A stretch of 64,000 bases of DNA from Yuukianura sp. NJ FZ-2021 (Eukaryota): contig CM102287.1 in the NCBI GenBank assembly GCA_046563655.1, positions 5,332,001 through 5,396,000 on the forward strand. The letters are read 5' to 3'. This document shows, piece by piece, positions 6,788-62,588 of this stretch; position 1 is the first letter of the stretch; each line of letters starts with the position of its first letter. Below the pieces are notes generated by a model that worked only from the letters and a program-made list of their open reading frames with translations, searched no databases and had not been told where the DNA came from. A program made the translations under genes and the position numbers.

Positions 6788-8092
6788 TTAACGAAAAGTA
6801 AGTAGTAGGTCCACTGTGGTTTTGAGCACAACATTGACATAGGTTTGGAGACAGAAATTTCTACTGGACACAGTAAATATTCCACCTACATTCATTGTGA
6901 TTGGGCGACACGACATTCGGAAAGCATGGTCAAATTTTGTGAGAGGCAAATTTTTAGAATTCTGAAACGAAATAAAACGTTTTGAGTGAATACTGATGTT
7001 TACACTAATTTGACATAGGACAAGACCCATGGCCAGTACTGCAATGTCGAGAGTTGTAATCAGGAACAGTATGAGGGGATCTCTGGTCCAACTTGCCTTC
7101 ATCAGCATGAATGTAAATCCAATGACGAAGAATATGTCCCCGTAGTACGCAATTTGAAACCAATGTCTAAAGTGGTCGTTCATCCTGATTCCATATACTT
7201 GGAGCGTTCTGTAAAGGGTGTAGCGTTTTAGCCGGTCAGATTCTCCTCTTCTATCAAAAGATGTAGGTTGAGCCAAGAGTTTGAGCCATTGCATAAGTGA
7301 AACCTCCATTAAAAGTGCAGTGAGCAAGCTGAAGCAGGCCCAAAACGCAAAAACGTTTCCCCCCAAACCAGTGATGATACCCGCTAGAATAGCTCCGACA
7401 GTATCGTTTTGGACTAAAAGTGAGTAGAAGCGGACCAATAGCCTCATAAAGAAAAAATTTGTGATTGCCGCCAGAACAATTACAACAGGCAGTTCGACTA
7501 ACACCATAAATCCCAGCAGCCTGAACGGTTTAAAGCACAGATACAGCAGTTTGTCACTTTCAGCCCATTTGACCATGTCGCGAATTGTTTTACCTAAAAA
7601 GCAAAAATAAAAATGCTTCATTGTTAGTTTAGATTCAGGCAAATTAAAAATGTTAATTCTCAAATTCAACGTGATTCAAATTCTAGCGTGGAAAAAGAAA
7701 AGAATTTATTTATTTCGTGTAATTTAGGAAATTGAATTTTTACGTGCGGTTCGATCAGTACTGAACAACTGATTCAGAAATTGCATAGATTTGTCTGTAT
7801 TCGTGTTCCATAATAGCTCTGCGTAGAGAAAATACCAAACTATGATGTTGACAGAAATGCTGCCCGCGAATTCAAGGTCAGTTTTACTGTTTACAAGCGT
7901 TCCGAGTGTTAATATACCCGTTAAAACACCAAGAATGCGCCCAAATATATAAATATTAGCCACGATTTTCCTTTGCTTATGTATTGCAGGTAAAATTTGC
8001 CATTGAGAATTTACGCAGCCCAACTTGAATGGACAAATTTTAAAATATGCTCCAATGTCTAGGTATCGGCGGTACTCAGAGTAGGCTGACAT
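6788..8092 (-). CDS. Divergent multi-TM chemoreceptor-like (gustatory receptor superfamily) protein, copy A; exons 8092-7744 and 7593-6788
   Basis: Several hydrophobic helices, a YRTLQ motif and a C-terminal VLKTTVDLLLTFR helix. The phase-1 intron is shared with the paralog at 51918-53394. Family assignment is by topology only. Confidence 0.6.
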
Positions 8093-9270
8093 TTTAGAAT
8101 AGTTGTGTAAGCGCCTATGGTGTTGACATAATAGTAACAGCAGAAAAGAAATCTGTTCAACCGAAAAAGAAGTAAATTTTCTGAAAAGTTGTTTGAAAAT
8201 TGAACCTTCAATTGAAAAAACGAGACCTTCTAATGCCCACCCGCCCGCGACCTCGATATTTTGTCCACCCGCCCAGTACCAACAGGGTATCGGGCGGGTA
8301 TAGGGTTACCCTACTGAGTAGGGCTCGCTGCGCTGCAAATTGCAGTCTGCAATACCCTACGGCCGACTCCCCTGGTCCAGACTTGCAGAAATAAGAATTC
8401 CTGCACGTCTTTATAAACACTAAAAGTAACCACAATTTTCTCCGGAATGTCATAAACAAGTCCAGAATGCTAAAACTAAAAAGCTAAGAGATGTTTATTC
8501 TTGCAAAAACACAAAATGCATTGGACAAACGTTTTTGATGATGATGTAGAAGTTTTTAACTGTAACCTTGCTTCTCAAACCAAAACATATTTCAGTGAAA
8601 GTGGAAGCATTATGGAGGAAATACTGGAAATTCTCATAAAAAATAAATAAAAGGGAAAGTACTTTTCAAGTAATAGACCTCGATGTAATGTGAAAATTGT
8701 ATGTAATTTAGTTAGCTTAGCATTATACTAAACGTATATTCAATATAATTCTTAGGTCGGAACTACTTAGAAATTGCATTCATGAACCCTGCGTGATTTG
8801 GTCAAAAGTGAAATGATCAGAAAGTGAAAAGGTCAGAAAGTGAAAAGCTCAAAAACGAAATGAACTATACGGCTATGTATGTTTTAGAAATATAAAAACT
8901 ATTATAGCCTTCCACTGCCGTATTTTTTATTTTACTATATTTATGCTCAACGGATTATATTTATTTATTTAGTTAATCATTAATTAAATAATGTTCCCAT
9001 TTGTAATAAAATTACGCTGATAACCAAAAATTTCTGAAATTCGGGCACCACTTACCACATTTAGTACAGCGAAATTCAGAGGTGAAAGTTCCATAGTTGG
9101 GTTGCCATAAGCATACATTTCAACAAGTAACACAGATAATAAATCATCTCGTTGCGTTGCCTCATTCGTTTCTAATTTGGAAAGTTTTTTTTTATGTTTT
9201 TATGCGTGTTTGGCTCAAAATTTTTGTTTTTGTTTTTTGGTACAAAGCAGTGTAGTGCTCAAACTGAAAA

Positions 9271-24073: not shown

Positions 24074-24787
24074 ATGAATCGAGACATTGAAGTAGTCGTT
24101 GACAGAGGAACTGCAGACAGAAAGTGCGATCTATTGCTTCGGCAAGCCGCTGCGATTGCGCTGGACTGCGAATGGTTCCAGCAAGGAAATTGGCAAAACA
24201 AACTAAGCTTGGTTACAATTGCTGGTGATGACGGCAAAATCATCATTTTTGACGTCTACAGATGCCCGGAAATATTAACAGGCAGATTGAAAAGTTTGTT
24301 GCAGGATAAGGACACTGTGAAGGTACAGTCTTACAAAAAAATCGCATTTTCATGAACTTTCAATTTCACTGGAGAATCCCTGATTCAAATAGGTTTTGTG
24401 AAAAAAATTGAATTCGAAAACTTTTGTTCTAAGGTTCTTCACGACTGCCGGGGGGACGCTAAAGCCTTACGTAATGCCGGGATTCAACTCCATAACGTCT
24501 TTGATACGCAGATTGCCTACAAGATCATCTTTGGCATTGATGGCATTGGGTTCAACGCGCTGTGTGAAAAATATCAACAACCGAAGAATCCAAAGAAGAA
24601 CACGGGAATCTTTGGACCTGCTTCGATCAATAGCACTTGGATGCGACGTCCCTTGACTGAAGAAATGCTTGAGTATGCTGCGGCAGACGTACGCCCGCTT
24701 ATGGCCTTGTACAAGGCGTTGTTAAGATCTATTCCGGCTCATAAGGTGGCGGAGTTTAATAGACTTTGTCGGGAGGCAACAAACTGA
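24074..24787 (+). CDS. Stand-alone DEDDy 3'-5' exonuclease, EXD1/Egalitarian-like, copy 1 (200 aa; exons 24074-24322, 24434-24787)
   Basis: ExoI IALDCE, KVLHDCRGD (ExoII), NVFDTQIAY, and WMRRPLTEEMLEYAAADV (ExoIII). Confidence 0.88.
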
Positions 24788-25530: not shown

Positions 25531-26263
25531 ATGGATCGAGGCATTGAAGTCATCACCGACAGAATTACTGCAGACAAGATGTGCGATTTTCTGCTGCGAT
25601 CCTTTGCTCCGATTGGCTTAGACTGTGAGTGGTTCCAATTGGAATATGAACAGAATGATCGACTAAGCTTGATTACCGTTGCTGGATCTGACTCAAGAGT
25701 GCTCATCTTTGATGTTCTGGAATGTCCGGACATTTTGAACGGCAGATTGAAAACTTTGTTGGAGGATCCCAAAATTATGAAGGTAAATTAAAATAAAAAA
25801 AAGAAACAAATCAATTTTTGCGAATTTATCAAACCCTGCTGCTGAAAGGTTGAATTTTATACCAACTTTTATGTAATTATATTTCCAACTTTTTTTCTAG
25901 ATTGTTCACGACTGCCGCGGCGACAGCACTGTTTTGCGTCAAGTTGGAATTCGACTTGACCCCGTATTTGACACTCAAGTGGCCTACAAGGTCATCTATG
26001 CCACCACGGAGGGTATTGCGCTCAACGTGCTGTGCCAAAAATATTGCCAGCCACAAAATCCACTCAAAAACAAAATTTCGGACATTTTTGGCAATTCTAC
26101 CGAGAAAAAATTCTGGGCTAAGCGTCCCCTGACTGCTGAAATGCTGGAATACGCAGCAGCAGACGTAAGTCCACTTACTGCTTTGCATAAGACCATGGCA
26201 GGCAAGATCAGACCGTACAACATGGCGGAATTTCAGCGCATGTGCAAAGACGCCACACTTTGA
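25531..26263 (+). CDS. Stand-alone DEDDy 3'-5' exonuclease, EXD1/Egalitarian-like, copy 2 (204 aa; exons 25531-25782, 25901-26263)
   Basis: IGLDCE, KIVHDCRGD, VFDTQVAY, WAKRPLTAEMLEYAAADV; same intron position as copy 1. Confidence 0.88.
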
Positions 26264-28026
26264 AGCTGGAACACTCCTTTCAACGTAAATTTTTTCCACA
26301 AGCTGTCTACTTTAATAAATACAACAAAAAGGAACATCGAAATTCAATTTCATTTTTATAAAGTTATGAATATTTTCTTTGCCAAAAATCGATACACGCC
26401 CTTTCACTTTTCTTCTGTTTTTTTCTTTTGCTTAGAATTTCTGATTGTGTAAAAAATTTTCCCCTATGCTTTGACCTATTTTAAATTGAAATTGTACAAG
26501 TAGAAGGTTTTCGCTTAAATAAAAAATTAAAATGTGCTTGTCATAAAATGGCCGTCCAACTTCCGTTGGTTTAATTCCGGTTTTGACAAAATAGTTTTCA
26601 TTCTGAATGAAGATCCGTTTGGTAGTGGCTGGAACTCAGAAGTCACGTAACATCACTTCCTCGTCACGACATGGGTCATCCAATTGTTCTCGACTGCCTT
26701 CCATTGTTAGTCTTTCAGAGCAGGAAAGGAAAATGGGAGTCGAAATTGTGACATGTCCTTGTACGTACTACAGTAAATGCGAATGTACAGATGAATGGCT
26801 CTACTAACCGAAAAGATCTAATTCTATTAATAGCCATTTTTTGCAGTGAAGTTGCTGAAATAGCTAACTACATGCTTAGGTCAGCTATTTACTTCTAGTC
26901 GGTGACACTTGGAATACAAATAAATCTTGGAGTCTCCTATCTTAGTTTTGATTTGATTCTTCTGTCAATTTTAAGTGTCTAATCTCAAATTTCAAAGAAT
27001 TAGTCATCACCTAACTCCGCTTGGACGAAGGACTTAAGACCATAAGGTAAACGGAGAAATTGGCATTTGAAGTTTAGATGAAAAGTTTAGCATTAGCCAG
27101 CGTTAGAAGACAACTTAAATATTAAGTGTTTTGCTAAATTATGTTTTAGTAGAAATTGAAGGTAAAGTGATGCGTTTCGATTAACCTCTTGAACCCTGAG
27201 TTATTTTCGTGGTGTTTGGTTTTCGGCCCTCTTTTAATTTCCATTGGTTACCACGGCTGACTAAATTGAAATATTGTTACGATTCGAGGGCGACGCCATT
27301 TTTTTTGTGGGGTGGCACAAGTGGCCGGATTTATGCCTCCATATTTTCTCACATATTTGACCCAAAATTAAATACACAATCCAACATAATGTTGGTGCCG
27401 GGTTAGTTTGACACAAATTCCGATTTTTTTTTGGAATAATATGATACAAAAATTCTGGAGTTTCTTGTCAATTGCCTTACTACATGTACATACACCGCGA
27501 TTTTTTTTAAAAAAAAAATCAAGAATTTAAAAAAAAAACCAAAAAAGAGTTTTTCGAAAAAGTGTTTGCTTAAAAAGGACGGAGTATCGTCCTTTTTAAG
27601 CAAAATTCAAATTACTGTTACAAAATGCATTTCTGAGAACATATTTTACATTTTTTTGACAACCAAAAACCATTTTCTCAACTTTTCATGACGAGTGCAA
27701 CATTTTTGATTGTAATAATATTATAATAATACTAACAATTGGCATAAATATTGAATATGCCGAGGCTGCTCCGCGTGCTTACTGGGGCTTCGCCGCAAAG
27801 AGTGATTTACGTCATGGGTGGGATTGTGACCCACACTCTTGCCGTACTGCAACATAATTTCTAATAACTTGCTAATAACTGTACTTACCATATATTACAA
27901 CAAGGTAATATATGATGATAATAATAAGAATAACATATTATTATTATTTATATTATGTGGATAATATAACATATACACATATTATATGCCGTAAACAATA
28001 CATTACCTCTTTAATGTATTTTGTAT

Positions 28027-29473
28027 ATCCAGAAAAGTTTGACCCATAAAAGTCTTATCTTGAAAAGCCTGATCAAGAAAAGTCAGATCCAGAAAAGTCT
28101 GATCCAGAAAAGTTTGATCCATAAAAGTCTTATTTAGAAAAATCTGATCCGGAAAAGTCTTATTTAGAAAATTCTGATCCGGAAAAGTCTGATCCATAAA
28201 AGTCTGATCCAGAAAAGTTTGATCCATAAAAGTCTTATTTAGAAAAATCTGATCCAGAAAAGTCTGATCCAGACGAGTTTGATCCATAAAAGTCTTATTC
28301 AGAAAAATCTGATCCGGAAAAGTCTGATCCAGAAAAGTCTGAGCCAGAAAAGTCTGATCCAGAAAAGTTTGATCCATAAAACTCTTATTTAGAAAAGTCT
28401 GATCCAGAAAAATCTGATCCAGAAAAGTCTGATCCAGAAAAGTCTGAGCCAGAAAAGTCTGATCCAGAAAAGTTTGATCCATAAAAGTCTTATTTAGAAA
28501 AATCTGATCCGGAAAAGTCTGATCCAGAAAAGTCTGAGCCAGAAAAGTCTGATCCAGAAAAGTTTGATCCATAAAAGTCTTATTTAGAAAAATCTGATCC
28601 GGAAAAGTCTGATCCAGACGAGTTTGATCCATAAAAGTCTTATTCAGAAAAATCTGATCCGGAAAAGTCTGATCCAGAAAAGTCTGAGCCAGAAAAGTCT
28701 GACCCAGAAAAGTTTGATCCATAAAACTCTTATTTAGAAAAGTCTGATCCAGAAAAGTTTGATCCATAAAAGTCTTATGTAGAAAAATCTGATCCGGAAA
28801 AGTCTGATCCAGAAAAGTCTGAGCCAGAAAAGTCTGAGCCAGAAAAGTCTGACCCAGAAAAGTTTGATCCATAAAACTCTTATTTAGAAAAGTCTGATCC
28901 AGAAAAGTTTGATCCATAAAAGTCTTATTTAGAAAAATCTGATCCGGAAAAGTCTGATACAGAAAAGTCTGAGCCAGAAAAGTCTGATCCAGAAAAGTTT
29001 GATCCATAAAAGTCTTATTTAGAAAAATCTGATCCGGAAAAGTCTGATCCAGAAAAGTCTGATCCAGAAAAGTCTGATCCAGAAAAGTTTGATCCATAAA
29101 AGTCTTATTAGAAAAATCTGATCCGGAAAAGTCTGATCCAGAAAAATCTGATCCGGAAAAGTCTGATCCAGAAAAGTCTGAGCCAGAAAAGTCTGATCCA
29201 GAAAAGTTTGATCCATAAAAGTCTTATTTAGAAAAATCTGATCCGGAAAAGTCTGATCCAGAAAAGTCTGAGCCAGAAAAGTCTGATCCAGAAAAGTTTG
29301 ATCCATAAAAGTCTTATTTAGAAAAATCTGATCCGGAAAAGTCTGATCCAGAAAAGTCTGAGCCAGAAAAGTTTGATCCATAAAAGTCTTATTAGAAAAA
29401 TCTGATCCGGAAAAGTCTGATCCAGAAAAGTCTGAGCCAGAAAAGTCTGATCAAGAATAGTCTAATCCAGAAA
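28027..29473. repeat. 15-bp tandem array (atccagaaaagtctg and variants), ~95 units with ~90-bp higher-order modules
   Basis: Directly visible. The minus strand reads as DQTFL/DQTFP/DQIFL/NKTFM/AQTFL pentapeptides. Confidence 0.95.
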
Positions 29474-48518: not shown

Positions 48519-49391
48519 TCTATTTCAAATAAATTATATTTTCTGGAATTTTTTGTTTTATTTCTGAACCTTAATTTAAAAACACTTGGATGAAAATATT
48601 TTCTGGAATTGTACTGGAATTAGTAAATCCTATTAGAGGAATGAAATTCGGCTCTTCAGAAAATCGCTTAAGGCTTATAACTATGAAAAAAATTTAAAGG
48701 GCTATAAGAAACTTTATAACAATGTACCAAAAGCTCTAACAATAAAATCATATTAATAAAAAAGGAAGTGTCTACTAAAATTTGTCTACTAAAGTGTCTA
48801 TTTTATAATTCATTTGTGTTCAAAAATATTTACAGCATTAAAAACCGGTCGTAAACCATAGTGTACAAAAGTAGCGAAAGATATGACGCTATATTCGTGA
48901 ACGGCTGCTCACACCGGCACACAATGAAAGTCATGGACTATAGTTATGAACGCTAAGATCAAAAAAGATTACCTTAGCTGTAATTGCCGTCGACGGACGG
49001 TCGGGCGGCCTTACAGACAGACAAGGTCGAAGCATCAAGTAGCTTTCGCTACTTAAGCCGTTTGTAAATCGAACATAAAACGACAATATTGAGACAATGT
49101 CTTGCAGAGTATTAATTAGATGATAATGTGCCAAATCCATCTGCTTTTTCGGCAAAGCCTTTCAAAGTATTTAATTAGATGGTAAAGGGCCAAATGTATC
49201 TGCTTTCGCTGAAATTTCCTAATAAACTACTAATTTATGGCATTAGTAATTCACTTAGCACTTTGTATCGACATTCTAGCAGAATCTGCATTTAGTTATG
49301 ATACTAAAACCATCTAATAAAATTGGTGATTTTCTGTACAAGCATTTAGAGAGTCTGAGAGTCACGGAACGAGAATTTCATTGCTACAAAC

Positions 49392-50135
49392 ATGCTCAAA
49401 TTTCTTGCGTCAAAATACTTGTTAACGTTAGTTTTAGTTACGGTAATATTCTTTGTATCTAATGTAACCGGAAGATCTTGGGATTTCGAGGACATTCTTG
49501 AGCCTCAATGTGACGACTGTCGCTGCCTAGGCCAAAGTTTACCCTACAACGACACTGGACTGCAGAAGGTCCTTGGGAAAGCAAAATTCCATATGATGAG
49601 TAGCCAATTGGGAGCAGTCATTGACAGTTTGTTCATGCGAGGAGTCCCAATTACGAGCGACGCTGAATTAAAGTCCATTTGCTACCGTAAGAGACACGAC
49701 TTTGGAAAAGCGGGAAGGTTGATGGTAATATGGGAATTGAACAATAACATTGTCGGATTTAATTGGAAAATGGAAAATGAAAATGAACATATTCGTTGTG
49801 GTGAAGCAGTTTATTTTAGAGACAATAAACCGACCCGATACAAAGATTGTGCGCATCGTCACGTCTATTTTCCAAAAATGAACAAGAAGAATACTGAACT
49901 TTACTACAACGCTTTTGGTAATGGAGATCCTACGCGTCACATTGTGTGGACTGACGGAACAGTTTCAATCAGTACGACATGCCACGGAGGGAGGTCTTGC
50001 TATGTAGTTGATTCACCAAAGAAACGCCTCAAGAAAAAAACAAAGACGGCGGTATTTTTGGCCTTGAAGAAATTGGGATTCGACACCACCAAAACAGCCA
50101 TCTACTCTCCTCGGAAGGCTTGCAAAAACGTTTAA
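49392..50135 (+). CDS. Intronless secreted protein, divergent lipocalin-like, copy 1
   Basis: Signal peptide and conserved Cys. The C-terminal HIVWTDG..STTC...YVVDS.KK.L...ALKKLGFD resembles lipocalin SCR2/SCR3 plus the helix (inference). Confidence 0.6.
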   Translation: MLKFLASKYLLTLVLVTVIFFVSNVTGRSWDFEDILEPQCDDCRCLGQSLPYNDTGLQKVLGKAKFHMMSSQLGAVIDSLFMRGVPITSDAELKSICYRKRHDFGKAGRLMVIWELNNNIVGFNWKMENENEHIRCGEAVYFRDNKPTRYKDCAHRHVYFPKMNKKNTELYYNAFGNGDPTRHIVWTDGTVSISTTCHGGRSCYVVDSPKKRLKKKTKTAVFLALKKLGFDTTKTAIYSPRKACKNV

Positions 50136-50502: not shown

Positions 50503-51050
50503 TTTCATGTTACCTAGAATGGAACCGGCTGACCTTGGAGCCAGAAGGAGTCAGCGAACAGTCAACACCTCCTGCACTCCCGCTGTTCAATAGTGAAAAT
50601 TGATCCCGAAAATGTTAGCGGTTTACGAGATAATTACTTTGCCGTCAAAAAGCGTACGGCTATACAGACAGACAATGCCGATGCATAAAGTATTCTTTGC
50701 TACTTAATAATCCGTTCGTAAATTGAACATAAAATGACAAAAGCAAAGCCTTTCAAAGTATCAAGTAGATAATTATAGCTTTATTCTTTAAAAAGTTTTT
50801 TTTTCACAAACTTACATCTGCCAATGGTATGTTTAGGTATTTACAGAGTAAAGTTAAGTTAATTATACATTAATTAGATGGTAATATGCCAAGTGTATCT
50901 GCTTTCGCTGAAGTTTTCTACTACACTTTACTAATTTATTACATTAGTAATTCACGCAGAATCGGCATTTAGTTATCATACATATCATAATAAAACTGGT
51001 GATTTTTTCCATTTAGAGAAACAGCGAACAAGTTTTGCATTGCTCCAAAA

Positions 51051-51791
51051 ATGCTCAAATTACTTGGGTCAAAATACCTGCTAACTTTAGTTACGATAAT
51101 ATTATTGTTTGTATCTAAAGTAAACGGAAGATCTTGGGATATCGAGGATATTCTTGAGCCTCAATGTGACGACTGTCGCTGCCTAGGTCAAAGTTTACCG
51201 TACAACGACACTGGGCTGCAGAAGCTCCTTGGGAAAGCAAAATTTCATATGATGAGTAGCCAATTGGGAGCAGTCATTGACAGTTTGTACATGCGCGGAG
51301 TACCAGTTACGAGCGATGCTGAATTGAGCTCCATTTGTTACCATAAGAAACACGATTTTGGAAAAGCTGGAAGGTTGATGATAACATGGGCATCGGATAA
51401 TAACATTGTTGGATGGAATTGGAAAATGGAAAATGAATTTCAAAATATTCGTTGTGGTGAAGCAGTTTATTTTGGAAACAATAAATCCGCCCGATACAGA
51501 AACTGTGCACATCGTCACGTTTATTTTCCAAAAATGAACAAGAAACATAGTGAACTTTACTACAAACTTTTTGGAAATGGCAATCCTACGCGTCATATAG
51601 TGTGGACTGACGGAACAGTTTCAATCAGTACGACATGCTACGAAGGGAGGTCTTGCTATGTCGTTGATTCACGAAAGAAACGACTCAGAAGAAAAACAAA
51701 GATGGCGGTACTTTTGGTTTTGAAGAATTTGGGATTCGACACCACCAAAACAGCCATCTACTCTCCCTGGAAAGCTTGCAACAACGTTTAA
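51051..51791 (+). CDS. Intronless secreted protein, divergent lipocalin-like, copy 2
   Basis: Closely similar to 49392-50135, including upstream sequence. Confidence 0.6.
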   Translation: MLKLLGSKYLLTLVTIILLFVSKVNGRSWDIEDILEPQCDDCRCLGQSLPYNDTGLQKLLGKAKFHMMSSQLGAVIDSLYMRGVPVTSDAELSSICYHKKHDFGKAGRLMITWASDNNIVGWNWKMENEFQNIRCGEAVYFGNNKSARYRNCAHRHVYFPKMNKKHSELYYKLFGNGNPTRHIVWTDGTVSISTTCYEGRSCYVVDSRKKRLRRKTKMAVLLVLKNLGFDTTKTAIYSPWKACNNV

Positions 51792-51917: not shown

Positions 51918-53394
51918 TTAACGAAAAGTGAGTAGAAGGTCAACTGTGCTTTTGAGGATAACATTAACATAGGTTTGGAGACAGAAATTTCTACTGGACA
52001 AAGTAAACATTCCACCCACATTCACTGTAATTGGGCGACAAGATTTTCTAATAGCATGGTCAAATTTTGTGAGAGGCAAATTTTTAGAATATTGGAACGA
52101 AATAAAACGTTTTGAGTGAATACTAATATTCACACCAACCTGGCATATAACAAGACCCATGACCAGTATTGTAATGTCGAGAGTTGTAAACATGAACAGT
52201 AAGAGGGGATCTTTGGTCCAACTTGCTTTCATCAGCATAAATGTAAACCCAATGACGAAAAATATGTTCCCGTAGTACGCAACTTGAAGCCATTGTCGGA
52301 GGTGGTCGTTGATCCTGATTCCATATACTTGGAGTGTCCTGTAAAGGGCGTGGCATTTCAGCCGGTCACGCTCTCCTCTTCTATCCAAAGGTGTATGTTG
52401 AGCCAAGAGTTTGAGCCATTGCATAAGTGAAGCCGAAATTAAAAGTGCAGTGAGCAAACTGAACCAACCCCAAAACACAAATGCGTTTCCTGCCAGACCA
52501 GTGACGAAACCCGCTAGAATAGCTCCGACAGTAGCGTTTTGGACTAGAATTGAGTAGTAGCGGACCATAAGCCTCATAAAGAAAAAGTTTGTGATTGCCG
52601 CCAACACAGTTATAACAGGCATTTCGACTAACACCATAAATCCCAGCAGCTTGAACGGTTTAAAGCACAGATACAGAAGTTTGTCACTTTCAGCCCACTT
52701 GAGCAAGCCGCGAATAGTTTCACCTAAAAAGTAAAAAAAAAATTCAAAGTTATAGTTTGCCTCTTTTCAGAAGGCACTTTTCTTTAGTGTTTTTTTTTCT
52801 TCGATTTCGACGCTCATGGAAAAACTTAGTTTTTGAGAAACGCTCTCCTCATTAGCGTTGAAATTTCAAAAAACTGGTAATTTCTAATGTTAAGCATCCG
52901 TCAAGCCAAGCCACTGGAATTTTTTCAAATTTGAAAAGTGCCTTCTAAAAAGAGACAAACTATAGTTTAGCTTTAAGGAAATTAAAAATTTAAATTTTCG
53001 AAATCAGTATTTTTTTTAGAGAAATATAAGAAATTGAATTTTTACGTGCTGTACGATCAGTACTGAACAACTGATTCAGAAATTGCACAGATTTGTCTAT
53101 GTTCGTGTTCCATAGTTGGTCTGCATATAGACAATATAATACTACAATGTTGATAGAAATGCTTCCCGCAAATTCAAGGTCAGTTTTGCTGTCTGCAAGA
53201 GTGTGGAATATCATTACAACCGATAAAATACTAAGAATACGCCCAAATTTAAAAATATTTGCCACGATTTTCCTTTGCTTGTGTGTTAGAGGTATAATTT
53301 GCCATTGAGAGTTTACGCAATCCAACTTGAACGGGCAAATTTTAAAATATGCTCCAATGTGTAGGTATTGGTGGTACTCAGAGTAGGCAGACAT
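51918..53394 (-). CDS. Chemoreceptor-like protein, copy B of 6788-8092; exons 53394-53046 and 52723-51918
   Basis: Colinear and closely similar to copy A, with the same phase-1 intron. Confidence 0.6.
52753..52962. mobile_element. TA-target (Tc1/mariner-type) MITE in the intron of receptor copy B
   Basis: ~30-bp TIRs tagtttgcctcttttcagaaggcacttttc / gaaaagtgccttctaaaaagagacaaacta, flanked by TA. The empty site gttagtttag is in the copy A intron (~7623). Confidence 0.85.
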
Positions 53395-54682
53395 TTTAGA
53401 ATCTGTTCAACTAAAAAGAGGTAAAGTTTTTGAAAAGTTTATTGAAGATTGAATTTTTTCAAAGCTGATTGGATTGGGAGACCGAGTTCACTGGACATAC
53501 TTCTAAAATAATCAGAATGCATGTACGTCTTTACAAACACTAATAAAAGTAAACCAGTTTTCTTGGGAATGTCGTAAACATGGCCTTCCAGAATACTAAA
53601 TACTAAAAAGCGAAGAGTTTTCAGTTATCTTTTCAAAAACAGAAAATACACGGCACAAACGTTTTTGAATTTCAGTGAAAGTTTTTTTAGTAGTAACATT
53701 GCCGTTTTTCTCATTCCAAAACATCGTAACATTTTGTCTAGCTTTAAATAATTCAGTGAAAGTGGAAGCATTATGGAGGAAAGGTTAAGCAGGAAACTGG
53801 AAATTGTCATAAATTCCTAAAGATAATACTCTTTTGTGGTAAATTATTGTACTGAAAGTACCTTTTATGTAATATAGATCGTTCTAATGTGAAAATTGTG
53901 TGTACTGAGGAGTTAGCGTTATACTAACCCTAAACATATTCAACATAACTTGTTTGTAGTTCGGAACTATTCTGAAATCGCATAAATTTTTAGTAACACA
54001 AACCCTGCGTCAAGCTCTATTATTACAGCAGCTTACTTTACTGCAAATGTATGTTAAGAAATATAAAAATTATTAAACAATATAACGAAAAAAGCTAACC
54101 TAAATTTAAATTAACTGATATGGCAGGCTCTGTTGTTTTTCGACAAATAAAATCTCGTACGTTTCTTACTGGAATACCAACCCAGGCAAAAGTAACAATT
54201 CAATGTGGATGTTTACCATTTGGGAATTGCCTTAAATTGTAGGGATCTTAAGATTATGCCGTTAACTTAAGGCGTGTCTGAGTTGTCGGCCGAGTCTTTG
54301 ATGGCCTCCGAATGTCACTCTGAGCAAAGTTATCAGACGTTAAATTTAAATTAATTTGAGACGATTACAGACCCCTTGTTGCATGGTCGTATTCCCACGG
54401 GTCAAATGACCGTCCGGGGATCATCGGCTTAGAGTCGCTTCTTCCTTGTTTGCAGGAAGGAGAAAACAGCGCATGACAGAGAAAGACTAGATCTGTTCGT
54501 GAATCTCAAGAAGTGTGAATGTGAAAGAACAAGATGTGAAAGCAGGAAGATGAACTTCATTATTCATTAGATGAGCAAGTCGAAATGTCGCGTGAAGAGG
54601 AAAGGTCACGCTGGTGTGGGTCAATAATACAGTAAAGTTTTTTCTACATTTTGTAAAGTTGTTCAGTTTTCACACAAAAGTG

Positions 54683-56886
54683 ATGAAGATTTTTCGAATT
54701 ATAAGGTAAGGAGAGCTCTGATTTCATAAAAACTTGTTGAATTCTGTACTGAAAAAAGTACAAAGTTCTTTTTTGGTCTTTTTCAGCTTCTTCTTCGTGT
54801 TGCTTCGGTTGGGCGGATCAATGAACGCAGCGCTGAAAGCAGCACTTTCGAAGAACATCAGTAGCATTTTAGACTCTTTTTCACTAAACTATGACAAGCG
54901 TGTGAGACCAAACTATGGTATGATTGCGAAAAAAAATTTAGTAGCTTTTCATAAAATTTTGCATTTTGCCTTTTCAAACAAGATTGAAATGCCTGTATAT
55001 TTCGTAAAAAATGTATTTTTTGTAGGAGGGGATCCGGTAGTCGTGGGAGTGAGCATGTATGTTCAAAGCATTTCGAAAGTTTCAGTTGTGAATATGGTAA
55101 TTTGCTTTTTTTTACCGAAATGTCCGAAATTTGCCAAAAATGACAAGCTAGCATTTCAGACACAGTTAAATTCGGTTCGATTTTTTGAAATTGTCATTTT
55201 ATAGGATTTCACCTTAGATTTTTATTTTCGTCAAACATGGAAGGATCAACGTCTCACTTTTACTGCACCAGAGGGCGTCAAACAACTCAGCGTGAGCACG
55301 GAGTTCTTAAAGTCAATTTGGGTTCCTGACACGTTCTTTGTTAATGAAAAAACGTCATATTTCCACAACGCAACGACTAGCAACGAATTTTTAAGAATTT
55401 ACCCCAACGGAGACATTCTCAGAAGCATTAGGTAACAAACCTAGTCTAATCTTGTGTTAAATCCAAATTTAACCTGGGAAATCTAAATTTTTCAGACTTA
55501 CGGTCACAGCCAGTTGTCCGATGAACTTACAATTCTTCCCGATGGACTCTCAATTGTGTAACGTGGAAATTGAATCTTTTGGATACACTATGCGTGACAT
55601 ACGATACGTCTGGAGTGACGGACCCAAGAGTGTTGGCGTGTCCAACGAAGTGTCACTTCCGCAGTTCAAGGTCATGGGCTACCGTCAACGAGCCAATGAA
55701 ATCAGCCTGAGCACTGGAAACTACTCTCGTCTGGCCTGCGACATTCTGCTTGTACGTTCAATGGGTTACTACATGATTCAGATCTACATCCCCTCCAGCC
55801 TCATTGTCGTCATCTCATGGGTATCATTTTGGCTCAACCGCAACGCTGCTCCAGCCAGGGTCTACTTGGGCATTACTACGGTAAGTTTGTGTCAAAATTA
55901 GTTTGTCGTATCGCTAAAGTAAAGTTTTGACTCGTTTAAAGTAGTGAAAATGAAAATCCAAACAGTAGTGTAAATTATGTTTTGCAGGTATTGACGATGA
56001 CAAGTCTTATGACTTCGACAAATAATGCCCTTCCAAAAATTTCATACGTAAGTTCCAAACGTTTTTGAGAAATTGCTGCATAAGTGGTTTGGATTCAATG
56101 CATTTCTGTACTGAGCATAAATTGCATAAGCTGCAATGACCATAAACTGCAATTGCTATAAAAATTTCAAAAAAAAAATCAAAATTCTGCTTCACGATTT
56201 GATAAATTAAGAAATACTAATTTGGATTTGGATTGTGAAGGTGAAATCTATTGATGTGTTCCTGGGTACCTGTTTCGTCATGGTTTTTGCCGCTCTACTC
56301 GGTAAGCGCCGAGCTTTACTAATATTCATATAAGCATATATTGAGTTTCAAGTCATAACGTTTTAGCAAAGATTCAGTTTTGGCGAAGCCAGAAATATAA
56401 GTATATTTAATAATGTGTTCTGTTTAATTGAAAGAGTACGCAACAGTGGGATATTTTGCAAAACGAATCCAAATGAGAAAGAACCATTTTGCAAATTTGA
56501 AAAAGCTGGCGATGCAAATCCAGCAATCTCGTGCCAATTCCCAGTGTCATTCGCAGGTACTTTATATTTATATGAATAAATATTTATAATTATATTTAAA
56601 TTATCCCAACATCTAATTGAACAATTGAAACGTAAAGTTAACCTCTAATTTGCAGGATCCTAGAGGCAACAATGCAATGTACCAATCAGATGAACTAGTT
56701 CTTCGACATATCCTACCGACCAATCCAAATCAAATTTGTGGTATTACCCCATCCGACATTGACAAATACTCCAGAGTCGTTTTTCCAGTTTGCTTCATCT
56801 GCTTTTCACTGCTCTACTGGATCATCTACCTCCACACTTCTATCATTGCAATCCCAAATCTTATTACGCTTAACCGAAAAGATTAA
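54683..56886 (+). CDS. Rdl: RDL-like GABA-gated chloride channel subunit, paralog 1 (9 coding exons)
   Basis: [31 protein letters not shown], Cys-loop [31 protein letters not shown]1 [48 protein letters not shown]. Confidence 0.93.
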
Positions 56887-57849
56887 GTTATTGGACCAAA
56901 TCACAGCAACCCACGACCTTAACATAACAAGAATCAGTAACGATAACTACAAATTATAAAATACTCAAAATGTACTGTAAAGGAACAGACTCTGTAATCG
57001 AATCATGTAGCAGATTACGTAAGGCCTTGCAAAAGCCAGTATCAAGCACACGAGCTTTGTACAGCACCAGTGTTACTTCTAAAAATAGTCGACAATAAGC
57101 ACATATCGTTTCGAACGAACCAAACATTCAGAGACGAAGTACAAAAAATCACATCAATTTTCATGCAATGAACGATTTCAAAATTTGCAAACTGCTTTAT
57201 AATGTCAAAAAAAAATCATTTCAAATTTTCTGACTTAATAGTTTTCACACTCCAGAGCAATGACCTGCTTAAGCCGTTTTATAAAACACGTTTCAATTTT
57301 AGAAACGCAAATTTTGTAATCTACTTTCTCTTTTGCACAAAATGAGGAACCATATTTCTCAAAATGATGAATTTCATCCGCTTTTGTGCCCTTTTCTCTT
57401 TGACATATGTGAAAGTTTGGAATATGTAATCATGTTCCATAACCAAACCTGAGGCACAAGTTCCGCCTGTGCCCGACAGCTTATCGACGCCTTTCTCCTT
57501 TGTCTTGGAAGTATATACTAGTAGTACTAGTAGTAAACATTTGTGCATGTGTGACCTTTTGCTTTTCGGAGAAAGTGGTTTATGGATTTTCCACTTTCTC
57601 CTTCATCCGCAGGTTCTCTGCATGTATCAATGGAGCCCAATCCTCAAAGGTATCCAGGGCTCAACATATTTTCACAACAACTTCACAAGGCTCCTTCCTT
57701 TTCAAACTTACCTAAACCCTCAACCTACCTTAACTTAACCTAGTTAACCTAATCCATAACCCAATTTAAAACAAAACCACGACCAGAATAGCCTAAATAG
57801 AGATTATGGTATGAAAACACTCTAAATTCGGAACACAATCTAGTAAATC

Positions 57850-59905
57850 ATGAGCTTGATTTACATCATCAGGTGAGTTCTAATAAAAAAAATCATAATA
57901 ATTAAATATTTAAAAACTGAGGTGAAGGTTTTTTCTTTTCATCATTTATGTTTTTAGCTTTCTCTTCCAATTGGCCATTCGGCTCCAGTTGAGTGCATCG
58001 ATGACTGATGAACTTAAAGCACTTTCCAAAAATATTAGTCTCATTCTGGACTCGTTTTCACAAAATTATGACAAGCGTGTGAGACCAAATTACGGTAAGG
58101 TCACAGAGATTGAAGAAGCTAAGAAACTGATATAAAAGACAAGTTGTATCGATTTTATCTTTTACAAGGCGTCGAACCCGTCGTCGTTGCAGTGAGTATG
58201 TATGTTCAGAGCATCTCAAAAGTTTCAGTAGTAGAAATGGTAAAACCAAAATTTCAATTTTTTTTTTCAGAATGTTGATGTAATTTAGGTAAAGTCTTAA
58301 CATTTGTTTTGATTTATGGCTGTAGGATTTCACTCTAGATTTCTACTTTCGCCAAAAATGGAAAGATCCACGTATGGCATTTAGCGCCCCAACGCGCGTT
58401 ACGCAGTTGAGTGTGAGCACGGAATTTTTGAAATCGATCTGGGTTCCGGATACGTTTTTTGTCAACGAAAAGAAATCTTACTTCCATCACGCAACTACAA
58501 ACAACGAATTTTTAAGAATTTACCCCAACGGAGACATTCTCAGAAGCATTAGGTAAAAAGCATAGTCTAATCTTAAGTAAAATTTAACTAAACTTAATAT
58601 GACTAATCTAAATTTTTCAGACTTACGGTTACAGCCAGTTGTCCGATGAACTTACAATTCTTCCCGATGGACTCTCAATTGTGTAACGTGGAAATTGAAT
58701 CTTTTGGATACACTATGCGTGACATTCGATATGTCTGGAGTGACGGACTCAAGAGTGTTGGCGTGTCCAACGAAGTGTCACTTCCGCAGTTCAAGGTCAT
58801 GGGCTACCGTCAACGAGCCAATGAAATTAGCCTGAGCACTGGAAACTACTCGCGCTTGGCCTGCGACATTCTGTTTGTGCGTTCCATGGGTTACTACATG
58901 ATCCAGATCTACATCCCTTCCAGCCTAATCGTTGTCATCTCTTGGGTGTCCTTCTGGCTCAACAGAAACGCTGCTCCAGCCAGGGTCTACTTGGGCATCA
59001 CTACGGTGAGTTTGTATCAATATAAGGTCATTTTTGTATCGAAAATGCATTTTCGATTGGAAAATTTCGCGTAATTCTGAAGAGTATTTTCGAAATTCCA
59101 AAAAGCTTTTGATTTTTGGATTTTGCAGGTATTGACGATGACCACACTCATGTCTTCGACAAACAAGGCGCTTCCAAAAATTTCATACGTAAGTTCAAAA
59201 ATTGTTCTGGAAGAATTGTACTAAAAGGGAGGTTAGTCTGAATTACCGAAAAGCTATGATTTCCCGAAAAATTCAAAATTTTGGCCACTATTTTCCAAAA
59301 ATTTTGAAATTCTTGGGATTTGAAAAGGTGAAATCCATCGACGTGTTCTTGGGGACATGCTTCGTCATGGTCTTTGCTGCTTTGCTAGGTAATCAAAGTT
59401 ATTTTGTATAATAATTACTTTCAAAATTTTGTTTTTATTTTTCAAAATTCAAACAATCGTGGTTTTTAGAATACGCTACCGTGGGATATTTAGCAAAACG
59501 GATTCAAATGCGGAAAAACCATTTTGCAAATCTCCAAAAATTGGCAATGCAGATCCAGCAGTCCCGTGCCATCGAAGCGGCCCATTGTCACTGGCAGGTA
59601 CTTTGCAAATTTTTGGACTTGTGGAACAGAGTTATTGTCGTTTTTGTCGCAAATTTTGAAAAATCTTCAAAAAATTTCAGGATCCACGAAACAATACTAT
59701 GCACCCTTCCAATGTTGCACTCCATCGTCTCATTCCGAGTAACCCCAACCAAATTTGCGGAATTACTCCATCGGATATTGACAAGTACTCTCGCGTTGTG
59801 TTCCCAGTATGTTTCATCTGCTTCTCACTGCTCTACTGGATCATCTATCTCCACATTTCCAACATCACCATCCCACACCTCATCATGCTCAAGCGCAAAG
59901 AGTAA
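57850..59905 (+). CDS. Rdl: RDL-like GABA-gated chloride channel subunit, paralog 2
   Basis: Same motifs and exon structure as paralog 1; start MSLIYIIS; M2 [20 protein letters not shown]. Confidence 0.93.
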
Positions 59906-60668: not shown

Positions 60669-62588
60669 TTAATAGTTTTCAGTACAAAATAGTATGCCAC
60701 TGTCACCTCCACAGATGAGTCGGTTGTTCCTGGAGAGGTTGACGGAATTGATCGGAAATGGAGACGAGTAAAGCGTTTTACAACTGAGGCCTTTCGTCAA
60801 AAATCCCAAGTTCAAATCCGTTTCATAGTCGTTGTCTGGAAAATTTAGAAAACGAAAAATTATTTTTGAAAATTCGAAAACTCGAAGCGTAGAATTCAAA
60901 CCACGAAGTCGCTTCGTGCTGATCAGCTTAATAACTCTAAGATCCAGAAAAAAATTTACAAAATGCTAAGATCAAAAATGCACTTTGCACATTACGCAAT
61001 TGGAAGCTCCAGGAAGCAAAAGAAAAATTAAAATGTGCATTTTTTATAATACGCGGTCATGCCCCAACACTAACTTTGTCTGGATAAACCCTGATCTGGT
61101 TTAGAATGTTGCAACTTTCGAGTGCAACTGTCTTATCATTAGTAGTAGTAAAATGAACTTTGAAGCGAACTTACTCTGGACCAAATCAGTTTCCATGCAA
61201 TCTTCAGCCGTGAACCAATGGATGACCTCTCCGTTTTGATTGCAAGTGTAGAATCTGTCTGGACAAATCGGATGGAAAAAAATTTCACTCACGGCTCCAT
61301 CTTGCCGTTCAAGGTTGGCAATTGGTTCAGAGGTGCAACCGCGGAGATCCCAGAGATCTGTCCCACCAGAAGCGTAACCCACCATGAGAATGTGGGGCTG
61401 TGAAGGATGTGGAGCGATACATGTGGCTCCAGAAAAATCCTCAAGGTTGTCCAAAGTCTGAGCAGCTTTTTTACTCCCGCCACGACGTAAATCCCAAATT
61501 TTCACTTGGCTTGCATTATTTCCAGTGGCGATAGTACGCCCCACGGTTTGCTCCACGCAGCAAAATGAAAAGTCTTCGACCGAATCTGCTCAAAATTTCC
61601 AGTATAGAGATGCATCTTGTTGAAATCAGGTAGCAATAACTTACTGAAAGCTTGAATGATTTCACAGGTTGCTAACGATACTTCGAAAATTGATCCGTCT
61701 TCTCCGACTGTGGCAACGGACGTGTCGAGCAAAGTTAGCCCAGTTGCGGGACACGCTAATCCACCACTATTAGAAAAGCATAAATCCAGATTCAAAATCC
61801 ATGATTATGTTCATTTTAAATTATAATGGAATTCCTTATTACATTGACGACTTACACTTTGAAGTGATGAACAACGTTGGAGGACATGATTCCGAACCTT
61901 CTTGGGCTCACACCATCATCATCTGAATCTTTCAATTGGAAATAAGACACAGCGCCAAACGAGGTTGTTAAAGCAAATCCTTGATTTTTGACGGCCTAGA
62001 AGGAATTTGCAAATTGTGAGCCATTGCAAATCCTAGCAATTCTAGACATTAATTAAGATCTTCTTAGATCACTCATTACCACAATGTCTGTAACATTTCC
62101 CAAAACCGGGAACTTCTGCACGGACTCGAGTTCGGGCATTGGTTCCTCTTCATTTGTCCTTGACGAGTCATTAACAGTCAACTTCCAAATGGAGGCTTCA
62201 TTTTCCTGCCATCGGATTTAAGAATGCCATAATTTTCAGAAAGTAGAATTTATATTTTAAGTGGGCATTGGCAATGCACTGACAATGAACTTACCAGTTC
62301 TCCCCATGATCCAACGACGAAATATTCAGGCATTGAGGCGTCAGGAACGATTCCAATGTGACCTAGCTTGAGCCATCTGACCTTGTTGACTTTCTTACCA
62401 GCTTGAGTAGAAAATCGGAACTTTGAGGATGGTTTCGAGCGCTTTCGGGAATGAGCCGTGACGGAGGGTTCGGATCCAGGCGGCGTTAAATCCACTCGGT
62501 TTCCAGTTAAACTCAATCTAGATTTATTAGTTGAGGTCATTGAATTGCGTGACTTCGGAAGTCCACTTAAGACTGCTGGAAACGACAT
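60669..62588 (-). CDS. Nup43: Nucleoporin Nup43-like WD40 protein, multi-exon
   Basis: KKVNKVRW...FVVGSW, VATVGEDGSI, QVKIWDLR, CIAPHPSQPHILMVG, LWDLR...VSEIFFHPICPDRFYTC...VIHW match the Nup43 motif order as I recall it. Confidence 0.8.

Follow-up and report, generated by a model that had tools for sequence, protein, structure and literature searches.

The window analysed here, a 64,000-nucleotide stretch of Yuukianura sp. NJ FZ-2021 (assembly GCA_046563655.1, contig CM102287.1, positions 5,332,001 to 5,396,000 of the forward strand), contains two intact nine-exon genes of the Rdl type, i.e. genes for subunits of a chloride channel that is opened by gamma-aminobutyric acid (GABA). They lie head-to-tail on the + strand at 54683-59905, and both encode Tyr at the 2' position of the second transmembrane helix (M2), the best-known insecticide-resistance site in animals. 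Our comparisons indicate that this Tyr has long been conserved within a single gene branch of springtails and is not a new mutation. The reading that we regard as fairly probable as a whole is that the two genes are functional tandem copies of this old RDL paralog branch, that their receptors would be poorly blocked, and that they likely work as heteromers with RDL subunits carrying Ala at 2'.

Structure and RDL identity of the two genes

Gene models were obtained by enumerating all GT/AG combinations near exon boundaries chosen by eye. Exactly one stop-free GT-AG model exists for gene 2 and two for gene 1, the alternative starting exon 3 at 55029 and being one residue shorter; the 436-amino acid form is used here. 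The outer ends of the two models coincide with the limits given in the initial annotation. The genes, their exons (stop codons included) and their M2 2' codons are as follows.

54683..56886, + strand: gene 1, ATG at 54683 to stop at 56886, 436 amino acids, RDL-type GABA-gated chloride channel subunit
54683-54705, 54787-54917, 55026-55096, 55205-55431, 55496-55880, 55988-56047, 56241-56301, 56435-56556, 56656-56886, + strand: exons of gene 1
55863..55865, + strand: M2 2' codon of gene 1, TAC, Tyr, residue 274
57850..59905, + strand: gene 2, ATG at 57850 to stop at 59905, 438 amino acids, tandem paralog of gene 1
57850-57872, 57958-58094, 58169-58239, 58326-58552, 58621-59005, 59129-59188, 59328-59388, 59470-59597, 59681-59905, + strand: exons of gene 2
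58988..58990, + strand: M2 2' codon of gene 2, TAC, Tyr, residue 276

A tblastn search of the whole window with gene 1 detected only the gene 1 and gene 2 copies, with each exon present once per gene, and revealed no second exon 3 or exon 6 in either gene within the window. Introns 2, 3 and 4 of gene 1 are short (64-108 bases), and there is no room for a second exon 3 in the window genes.

Both TAC codons are read in frame, in agreement with the initial annotation, which had placed Tyr at M2 2' in both paralogs and had listed the PAR filter, T6', L9' and the motifs FYFRQ, EIESFGY, GNYSR and DVFLGTC as retained; all of these landmarks are present in both genes in the protein alignment. The anion-filter signature Pro-Ala-Arg occupies -2' to 0' within the string PARVY, and the Cys-loop consists of two Cys residues separated by 13 residues in both proteins. 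M2 is interrupted by an intron immediately after GITT and resumes with VLTM, the first residues of the following exon, which begins at 55988 (gene 1) or 59129 (gene 2). Neither TAC codon is among the differences listed for DNA contigs of public sequencing runs, which is not counted as independent confirmation, and a contig of run X1 covering 58970-59430 shows zero differences; X1 is possibly the source sample, so that this contig does not provide independent support either.

The RDL-type identity proposed in the same annotation was borne out by structure matches and trees: the best solved match is honeybee RDL, and both genes are placed inside arthropod RDL. The Pfam domains Neur_chan_LBD (E 3e-17 and 3e-15) and Neur_chan_memb (E 6e-11) match exons of the genes (exons 4, 5, and 9 in gene 1). 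With the exon spanning the Cys-loop to M2 as query, the best PDB match was 9she_A (240 bits, E 5e-71), followed by human GABA-A beta-1 (132 bits). The 9she_A entry is a 476-residue chain titled 'GABA receptor subunit beta', and its numbering agrees with that of a preprint on honeybee RDL (10.1101/2025.03.24.644576) for E189, F191, and Y239 and for P282 at -2'. E189, F191, and Y239 are conserved in the HMMER alignment to 9she_A; R96 (in FYFRQ) and R151 (in F-L/I-R-I) are conserved by manual count along the protein alignment. In honeybee RDL, according to the accessible part of the preprint, mutation of R96, E189 or Y239 abolishes the GABA response, and R151 and F191 mutants have shifted responses (10.1101/2025.03.24.644576). 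Identity to insect RDLs amounts to 67-71% over the full length and to approximately 83% over the Cys-loop-to-M2 exon. Judged from their sequences, gene 1 and gene 2 are true RDL-clade subunits. Both lack the RDL-typical 2' Ala and have Tyr instead; 2' Ala is typical of RDL, not defining, and S, N, Q, P or H occupies the position in known RDL paralogs.

A springtail branch with Tyr at M2 2'

The canonical M2 motif, PARVALGVTTVLTM, is the most frequent form, accounting for 151 of the 187 M2 motifs recognized in 180 related proteins. An M2 identical to that of the window genes was found in Folsomia candida, Allacma fusca, Orchesella dallaii (two proteins), and O. cincta (ODN04742.1), and also in unnamed JGI proteins and the metagenome loci L006 and L008. 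Three of the 120 proteins listed by the exon-query search share the exact M2 (those of F. candida and A. fusca and a JGI protein), and a second search, with a profile built from these three, added the two O. dallaii 2'-Tyr proteins. A HMMER search of 1.84 billion cluster representatives was performed with the Folsomia protein as query; among the best 150 representatives, which were used here, M2 was recognizable in 136 and not in 14, and the sole 2' Tyr in the 136 scorable ones belongs to ODN04742.1, a springtail protein. The 2' residues were distributed as follows.

187 M2 motifs in 180 proteins: A 151, Q 9, G 8, S 8, Y 5, T 4, N 1, P 1
136 scorable cluster representatives: A 60, S 35, G 13, T 13, Q 8, V 3, H 1, Y 1, C 1, N 1

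In a word-index search scored over M1-M3, the only sequences outranking canonical RDL, multi-domain mis-predictions being disregarded, were the springtail 2'-Tyr proteins, two 2'-Pro proteins (one from Logan), and a JGI protein. Overall, 2' Tyr occurs in 9 of 378 proteins, including three isoforms of one Folsomia gene and two members of one JGI cluster, and is also encoded by 2 of 20 metagenome loci. The codon is TAC in all four copies read at the codon level, and the adjoining codons vary at synonymous sites. Among named species, the 2'-Tyr branch, as identified from these sequences, is found only in springtails. Other RDL types are present in the same animals: F. candida possesses two 2'-Ala RDLs (P0121 and P0159) and one 2'-Pro protein, and O. 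cincta possesses a 2'-Ala RDL (P0040).

Trees were built from subsets chosen by hand, which excluded many fused gene models and insect isoforms that are nearly identical. In a quick tree of 48 rows, selected from 329 proteins and including vertebrate-like beta, glycine-receptor-like, and alpha-like representatives as outgroups, gene 1 and gene 2 fall within an RDL-type clade of 36 rows (approximate likelihood-ratio support, SH-aLRT, 97). In a more careful tree of 32 rows, the two genes are sisters (100/100), and the eight 2'-Tyr rows form one clade with the Folsomia 2'-Pro protein (100/100), in which the 2'-Pro row stands apart from the Tyr group (87/84). The sister group of this clade is formed by the springtail 2'-Ala RDLs (89/73), and the insect RDLs constitute a separate clade (98/98). 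The quick tree agrees with this arrangement. All named members of the clade are springtails, and for this reason the window's organism is most likely a springtail too. The named members belong to both Symphypleona (Allacma) and Entomobryomorpha (Folsomia and Orchesella), which indicates that the Tyr is older than the split between these orders. The initial annotation had supposed that the Tyr arose before the tandem duplication; it did so by far more than was assumed, being common to at least four named springtail species of different orders.

In ten columns of the alignment, all 2'-Tyr rows have the same residue, one that is rare (under 5%) among 46 canonical rows, which comprised every third of 134 eligible canonical proteins plus three springtail 2'-Ala proteins. 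These signature columns include Arg to Ser in the Cys-loop, His to Tyr before loop C, Ile to Val in M1, Ala to Tyr at 2', Val to Ile at 5', and Ser to Ala in M3. The 2'-Pro protein has 8 of the 10. The 2'-Pro subunits represent another RDL type specific to springtails, and two or more organisms possess it (F. candida OXA60668.1, P0126, and the Logan protein P0351). A change from Ala to Tyr via Ser, suggested in the initial annotation, follows from the genetic code as the plausible route, and it would also be consistent with the existence of the 2'-Pro sister type, since Tyr and Pro can each be reached from Ser in a single step.

One member of the branch was found in a form without introns. P0330, a complete 2'-Tyr ortholog of 445 amino acids with a signal peptide and a stop codon, lies on a 1449-base JGI contig and is 75-76% identical to gene 1 and gene 2. 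It is probably a spliced transcript, because no intron breaks its coding sequence, in contrast to all genomic copies seen (the window copies and loci L006 and L008), and it would be indirect evidence that the branch is expressed. Loci L005 and L006 were also considered as evidence of splicing and rejected: some of their exons are merged but introns remain, and they provide no proof of transcription. In F. candida, isoforms X1 and X2 of the 2'-Tyr gene (P0046 and P0331; RefSeq) differ only at residues 77-96, a segment that is the classic Rdl alternative exon 3 in two mutually exclusive versions.

The initial annotation had named, among the outcomes that would refute it, the substitution being already common or described in this lineage. 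It is common, in that it is fixed in a springtail paralog clade and the 2'-Tyr sequences are already public in annotated springtail proteomes. As for its being described, no published description of 2' Tyr or of springtail Rdl paralogs was found in a search of literature outside subscription-only sources. Springtails are not mentioned in the main text or the nine supplementary files of the study of duplicated insect Rdl genes by Guo et al. (2023, PMC10482695), nor is tyrosine in its main text. The accessible part of a paper on louse GABA subunits (PMC11275251) contains nothing on RDL paralogs or the 2' position, and a term search of a paper on the TETS site (PMC7746976) yielded no bulky 2' mutants.

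Age of the tandem pair and its surroundings

The gene 1 and gene 2 proteins are 86.6% identical over 433 aligned residues. The rates of nonsynonymous (dN) and synonymous (dS) substitution between the two genes were as follows.

Whole coding sequence: dN 0.076, dS 0.955
Outside residues 135-279: dN 0.112, dS 2.19 (saturated)
Residues 135-225: dN 0.005, dS 0.07

With dN/dS values of about 0.05-0.08, both copies are under strong purifying selection, pore helix included. Elsewhere than in residues 135-225, dS is 1.35-2.27 or saturated, and the tandem duplication itself is old, because dS is approximately 2.2 outside the segment described below. That segment extends from the end of exon 4 to the middle of exon 5, and it has been homogenized by a fairly recent gene conversion.

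55398..55750, + strand: core of the gene-conversion tract in gene 1 (from the end of exon 4 through intron 4 to two thirds of the way into exon 5; limits approximate)
about 58520-58875, + strand: partner of the tract in gene 2, with near-identical exon and intron sequence

Within the tract, nucleotide identity in 60-base windows is 92-100% (78% even in intron 4), against a background of 63-80% in the other exons and 27-53% in the other introns. The Tyr codon lies outside the freshest part of the tract, since dS of the M1-M2 portion is 0.61.

These data bear on the idea that the use of cyclodienes or phenylpyrazoles has recently selected the Tyr as a target-site resistance mutation, in the manner of A2'S, G or N in pest insects. 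The position is indeed the one at which the classic resistance substitutions occur, as stated in the accessible text of Guo et al. (PMC10482695). However, the Tyr is common to paralogs with saturated synonymous sites, orthologs from four or more named springtail species have it, as do two metagenome loci, and two nucleotide changes are needed to reach it from Ala. The probability of a recent resistance mutation is practically negligible, and this candidate was ruled out by the phylogenetic distribution of 2' Tyr in both trees.

Public DNA contigs bridge gene 1 to gene 2 at 55897/59114 (run X4) and at 56188/59291 (runs X1 and X2), skipping about 3.1-3.2 kb, which corresponds to one repeat period. 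They could represent a single-copy hybrid haplotype generated by unequal crossing-over or an assembly collapse between the paralogs. In addition, a contig of run X2 matches gene 1 from about 55633, and its upstream sequence differs yet still resembles an RDL exon, a hint that the sample may contain another gene or allele of the RDL type. The joining of the two genes in some public contigs could reflect a collapsed copy or a single-copy haplotype, and it would be compatible with decaying duplicates or an artefact of the assembly. Such an origin is very improbable: both frames are intact with canonical splice sites, dN/dS is low, the copies differ at many sites outside the conversion tract, and both are covered by DNA contigs of three runs. 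A pseudogene or artefact was rejected on the basis of the intact frames, the low dN/dS, and this contig coverage.

The region around the genes is rich in local duplicates, and a long open frame on the - strand at 28003-29450, composed of short repeated peptide units, corresponds to a tandem-repeat region. The following features were also identified in the window.

49359-50135 and 51003-51791, + strand: pair of paralogous secreted Cys-rich proteins, no Pfam match
6788-8305 and 51918-53406, - strand: pair of paralogous multi-pass membrane proteins, no Pfam match
814-2152, - strand: CRAL-TRIO/GOLD protein
24356-24787, + strand: 3'-5' exonuclease domain protein, with a second copy near 25901-26263
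61101-61804, - strand: WD40 beta-propeller protein

Predicted pore properties and comparison with known systems

The hallmark of the branch is the replacement of 2' Ala by Tyr together with 5' Ile, a shortened M3-M4 loop, and a few other fixed changes. In the part of the honeybee RDL preprint that is accessible, the side chains at -2', 2', 6', 9', 13', and 16' face the lumen, and the GABA-bound pore narrows near P282 at -2' (10.1101/2025.03.24.644576). By analogy, subunits of the branch may bind GABA and conduct chloride, with the Tyr side chains projecting into the lumen at a level one helical turn above -2', where the pore is constricted. In the -2' to 6' stretch, in which resistance mutations at 2' exert their effect, Tyr would fill or narrow the site of picrotoxin-type, cyclodiene, and phenylpyrazole blockers, so receptors containing 2'-Tyr subunits would be expected to be poorly blocked and to have a narrower pore of lower conductance. 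Five Tyr residues in one ring would crowd the pore, which makes a heteromer with 2'-Ala RDL the most likely working form. The Tyr was inherited from an ancestor in common with distant springtails, and these have ordinary 2'-Ala RDL genes besides.

Several points weigh against this account. The crowding by five Tyr residues is a purely geometric argument, and the presence of a canonical 2'-Ala RDL in this organism is assumed from its relatives. The sister link to the springtail 2'-Ala RDLs is moderate (89/73 in the careful tree and SH-aLRT 91 in the quick tree). Finally, intron positions vary among springtail copies (L005 and L006), and P0330, on a contig whose type is not on record, is possibly an intron-poor genomic copy.

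The subunits might instead form functional homomers in which the Tyr ring is accommodated sideways or downwards, giving a narrower or differently gated pore and a receptor class apart from canonical RDL. All checked agonist-site and assembly-relevant landmarks are kept, and the branch has undergone its own duplications in two lineages (the window and O. dallaii), as would fit an independent receptor type; the canonical RDL relative, moreover, forms homopentamers in solved structures (the 9she family; accessible part of 10.1101/2025.03.24.644576). Since the 2' side chains face the lumen beside the narrowest part of the open pore in these structures, and since Tyr is much larger than the other 2' residues observed among the 136 representatives (A, S, G, T, Q, V, H, C, and N), we consider homomers rather unlikely.

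Less probable again is a non-conducting or regulatory role, in which the subunits would be dominant-negative partners lowering GABA currents or would be gated by another ligand. The bulky pore residue, the much shortened M3-M4 loop without the conserved motif of canonical RDLs, and the fixed changes in the Cys-loop (Arg to Ser) and next to loop C (His to Tyr) could all be taken in this sense, but the five GABA-response residues and PAR, T6', and L9' are conserved, and strong purifying selection acts across the whole protein, pore helix included.

Returning to poorly blocked heteromers as the favoured account, a bolder extension of it may be put forward tentatively, namely that springtails have kept, probably for several hundred million years, a dedicated subunit whose 2' Tyr ring sits in the blocker pocket and which would equip neurons with a GABA receptor unpluggable by blockers of the picrotoxin, cyclodiene, and phenylpyrazole types. 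Springtails are mostly detritus and fungus feeders, so that an explanation by plant terpenoids is not directly transferable to them, and an adaptation of such soil animals to microbial and fungal GABA-receptor toxins could explain the subunit. The aromatic ring might also serve as an extra hydrophobic gate or conductance filter, unseen in other anion-selective members. Folsomia candida is a standard soil test animal in wide use in soil ecotoxicology, and its ortholog XP_021947667.1 could affect how toxicity data of the fipronil type for springtails are interpreted. If the receptor were indeed unpluggable, this would matter for the responses of F. candida to pore-blocker pesticides. The branch also offers a natural experiment on how much bulk is tolerated at the cytoplasmic end of an anion-selective pore.

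Compared with canonical arthropod RDL, the window genes share the domain plan, the Cys-loop, the PAR filter, T6', L9', the M3 Gly, and the GABA-site residues. With the M3 Gly they keep a site for fluralaner, broflanilide, and avermectin. They differ in having Tyr at 2' where canonical RDL has Ala, Ile at 5' where it has Val, Ser in place of the M1 Gly (by count from A301, G279 of Guo et al.), Ala for Ser in M3, Ser for Arg in the Cys-loop, and Tyr for His ahead of loop C. Their M3-M4 loop is much shorter and without the conserved motif, and canonical RDL has mutually exclusive exons 3 and 6, whereas each exon is present in a single copy here. The springtail 2'-Pro RDL paralog resembles them as the sister of the 2'-Tyr group sharing the 8 signature columns, but it has its own Pro at 2' and, unlike the window genes, a long M3-M4 loop.

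A working analogy is provided by the beta subunit of the glycine receptor, which belongs to the family and has a bulky residue lining its pore. This subunit, which carries the residue at 6', is not functional by itself, and heteromers that contain it show reduced conductance and are less sensitive to picrotoxin. It belongs to another subfamily, its bulk is at 6' and not at 2', and it has no sequence closeness to the window genes beyond the superfamily.

The nearest parallel is the pattern described for insects. In the accessible text of Guo et al. (PMC10482695), duplicated Rdl2 and Rdl3 genes are reported from aphids, scale insects, leafhoppers, ladybirds, and Lepidoptera; every duplicated copy has a different residue at 2', namely S, N, Q or P with 6'I, and old Rdl duplicates with a changed 2' are linked to natural toxins. 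The springtail branch resembles this pattern in that an extra copy arose by an old duplication and then exchanged its 2' Ala for another residue, in that the M1 Gly highlighted in that paper is replaced in the window genes as well, and in that the checked relatives, F. candida and O. cincta, keep a 2'-Ala copy. At the sites I276, G279, 2', 6', V339, and A343 of Guo et al., numbered by our own count from A301, which reproduces the residue types named in that paper, the window genes have I, S, Y, T, V, and A, i.e. two of the six are changed. The differences are that the insect copies, in the same text, have S, N, Q or P at 2' and no Tyr, and that the duplication in the window is independent of the insect ones and lies on the springtail branch in the careful tree. 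The pattern itself is known; what is new is an independent old duplication in non-insect hexapods with a residue unreported at 2'. The conserved Tyr extends the pattern of Rdl duplicates with a changed 2' to a non-insect hexapod lineage and to a far bulkier residue.

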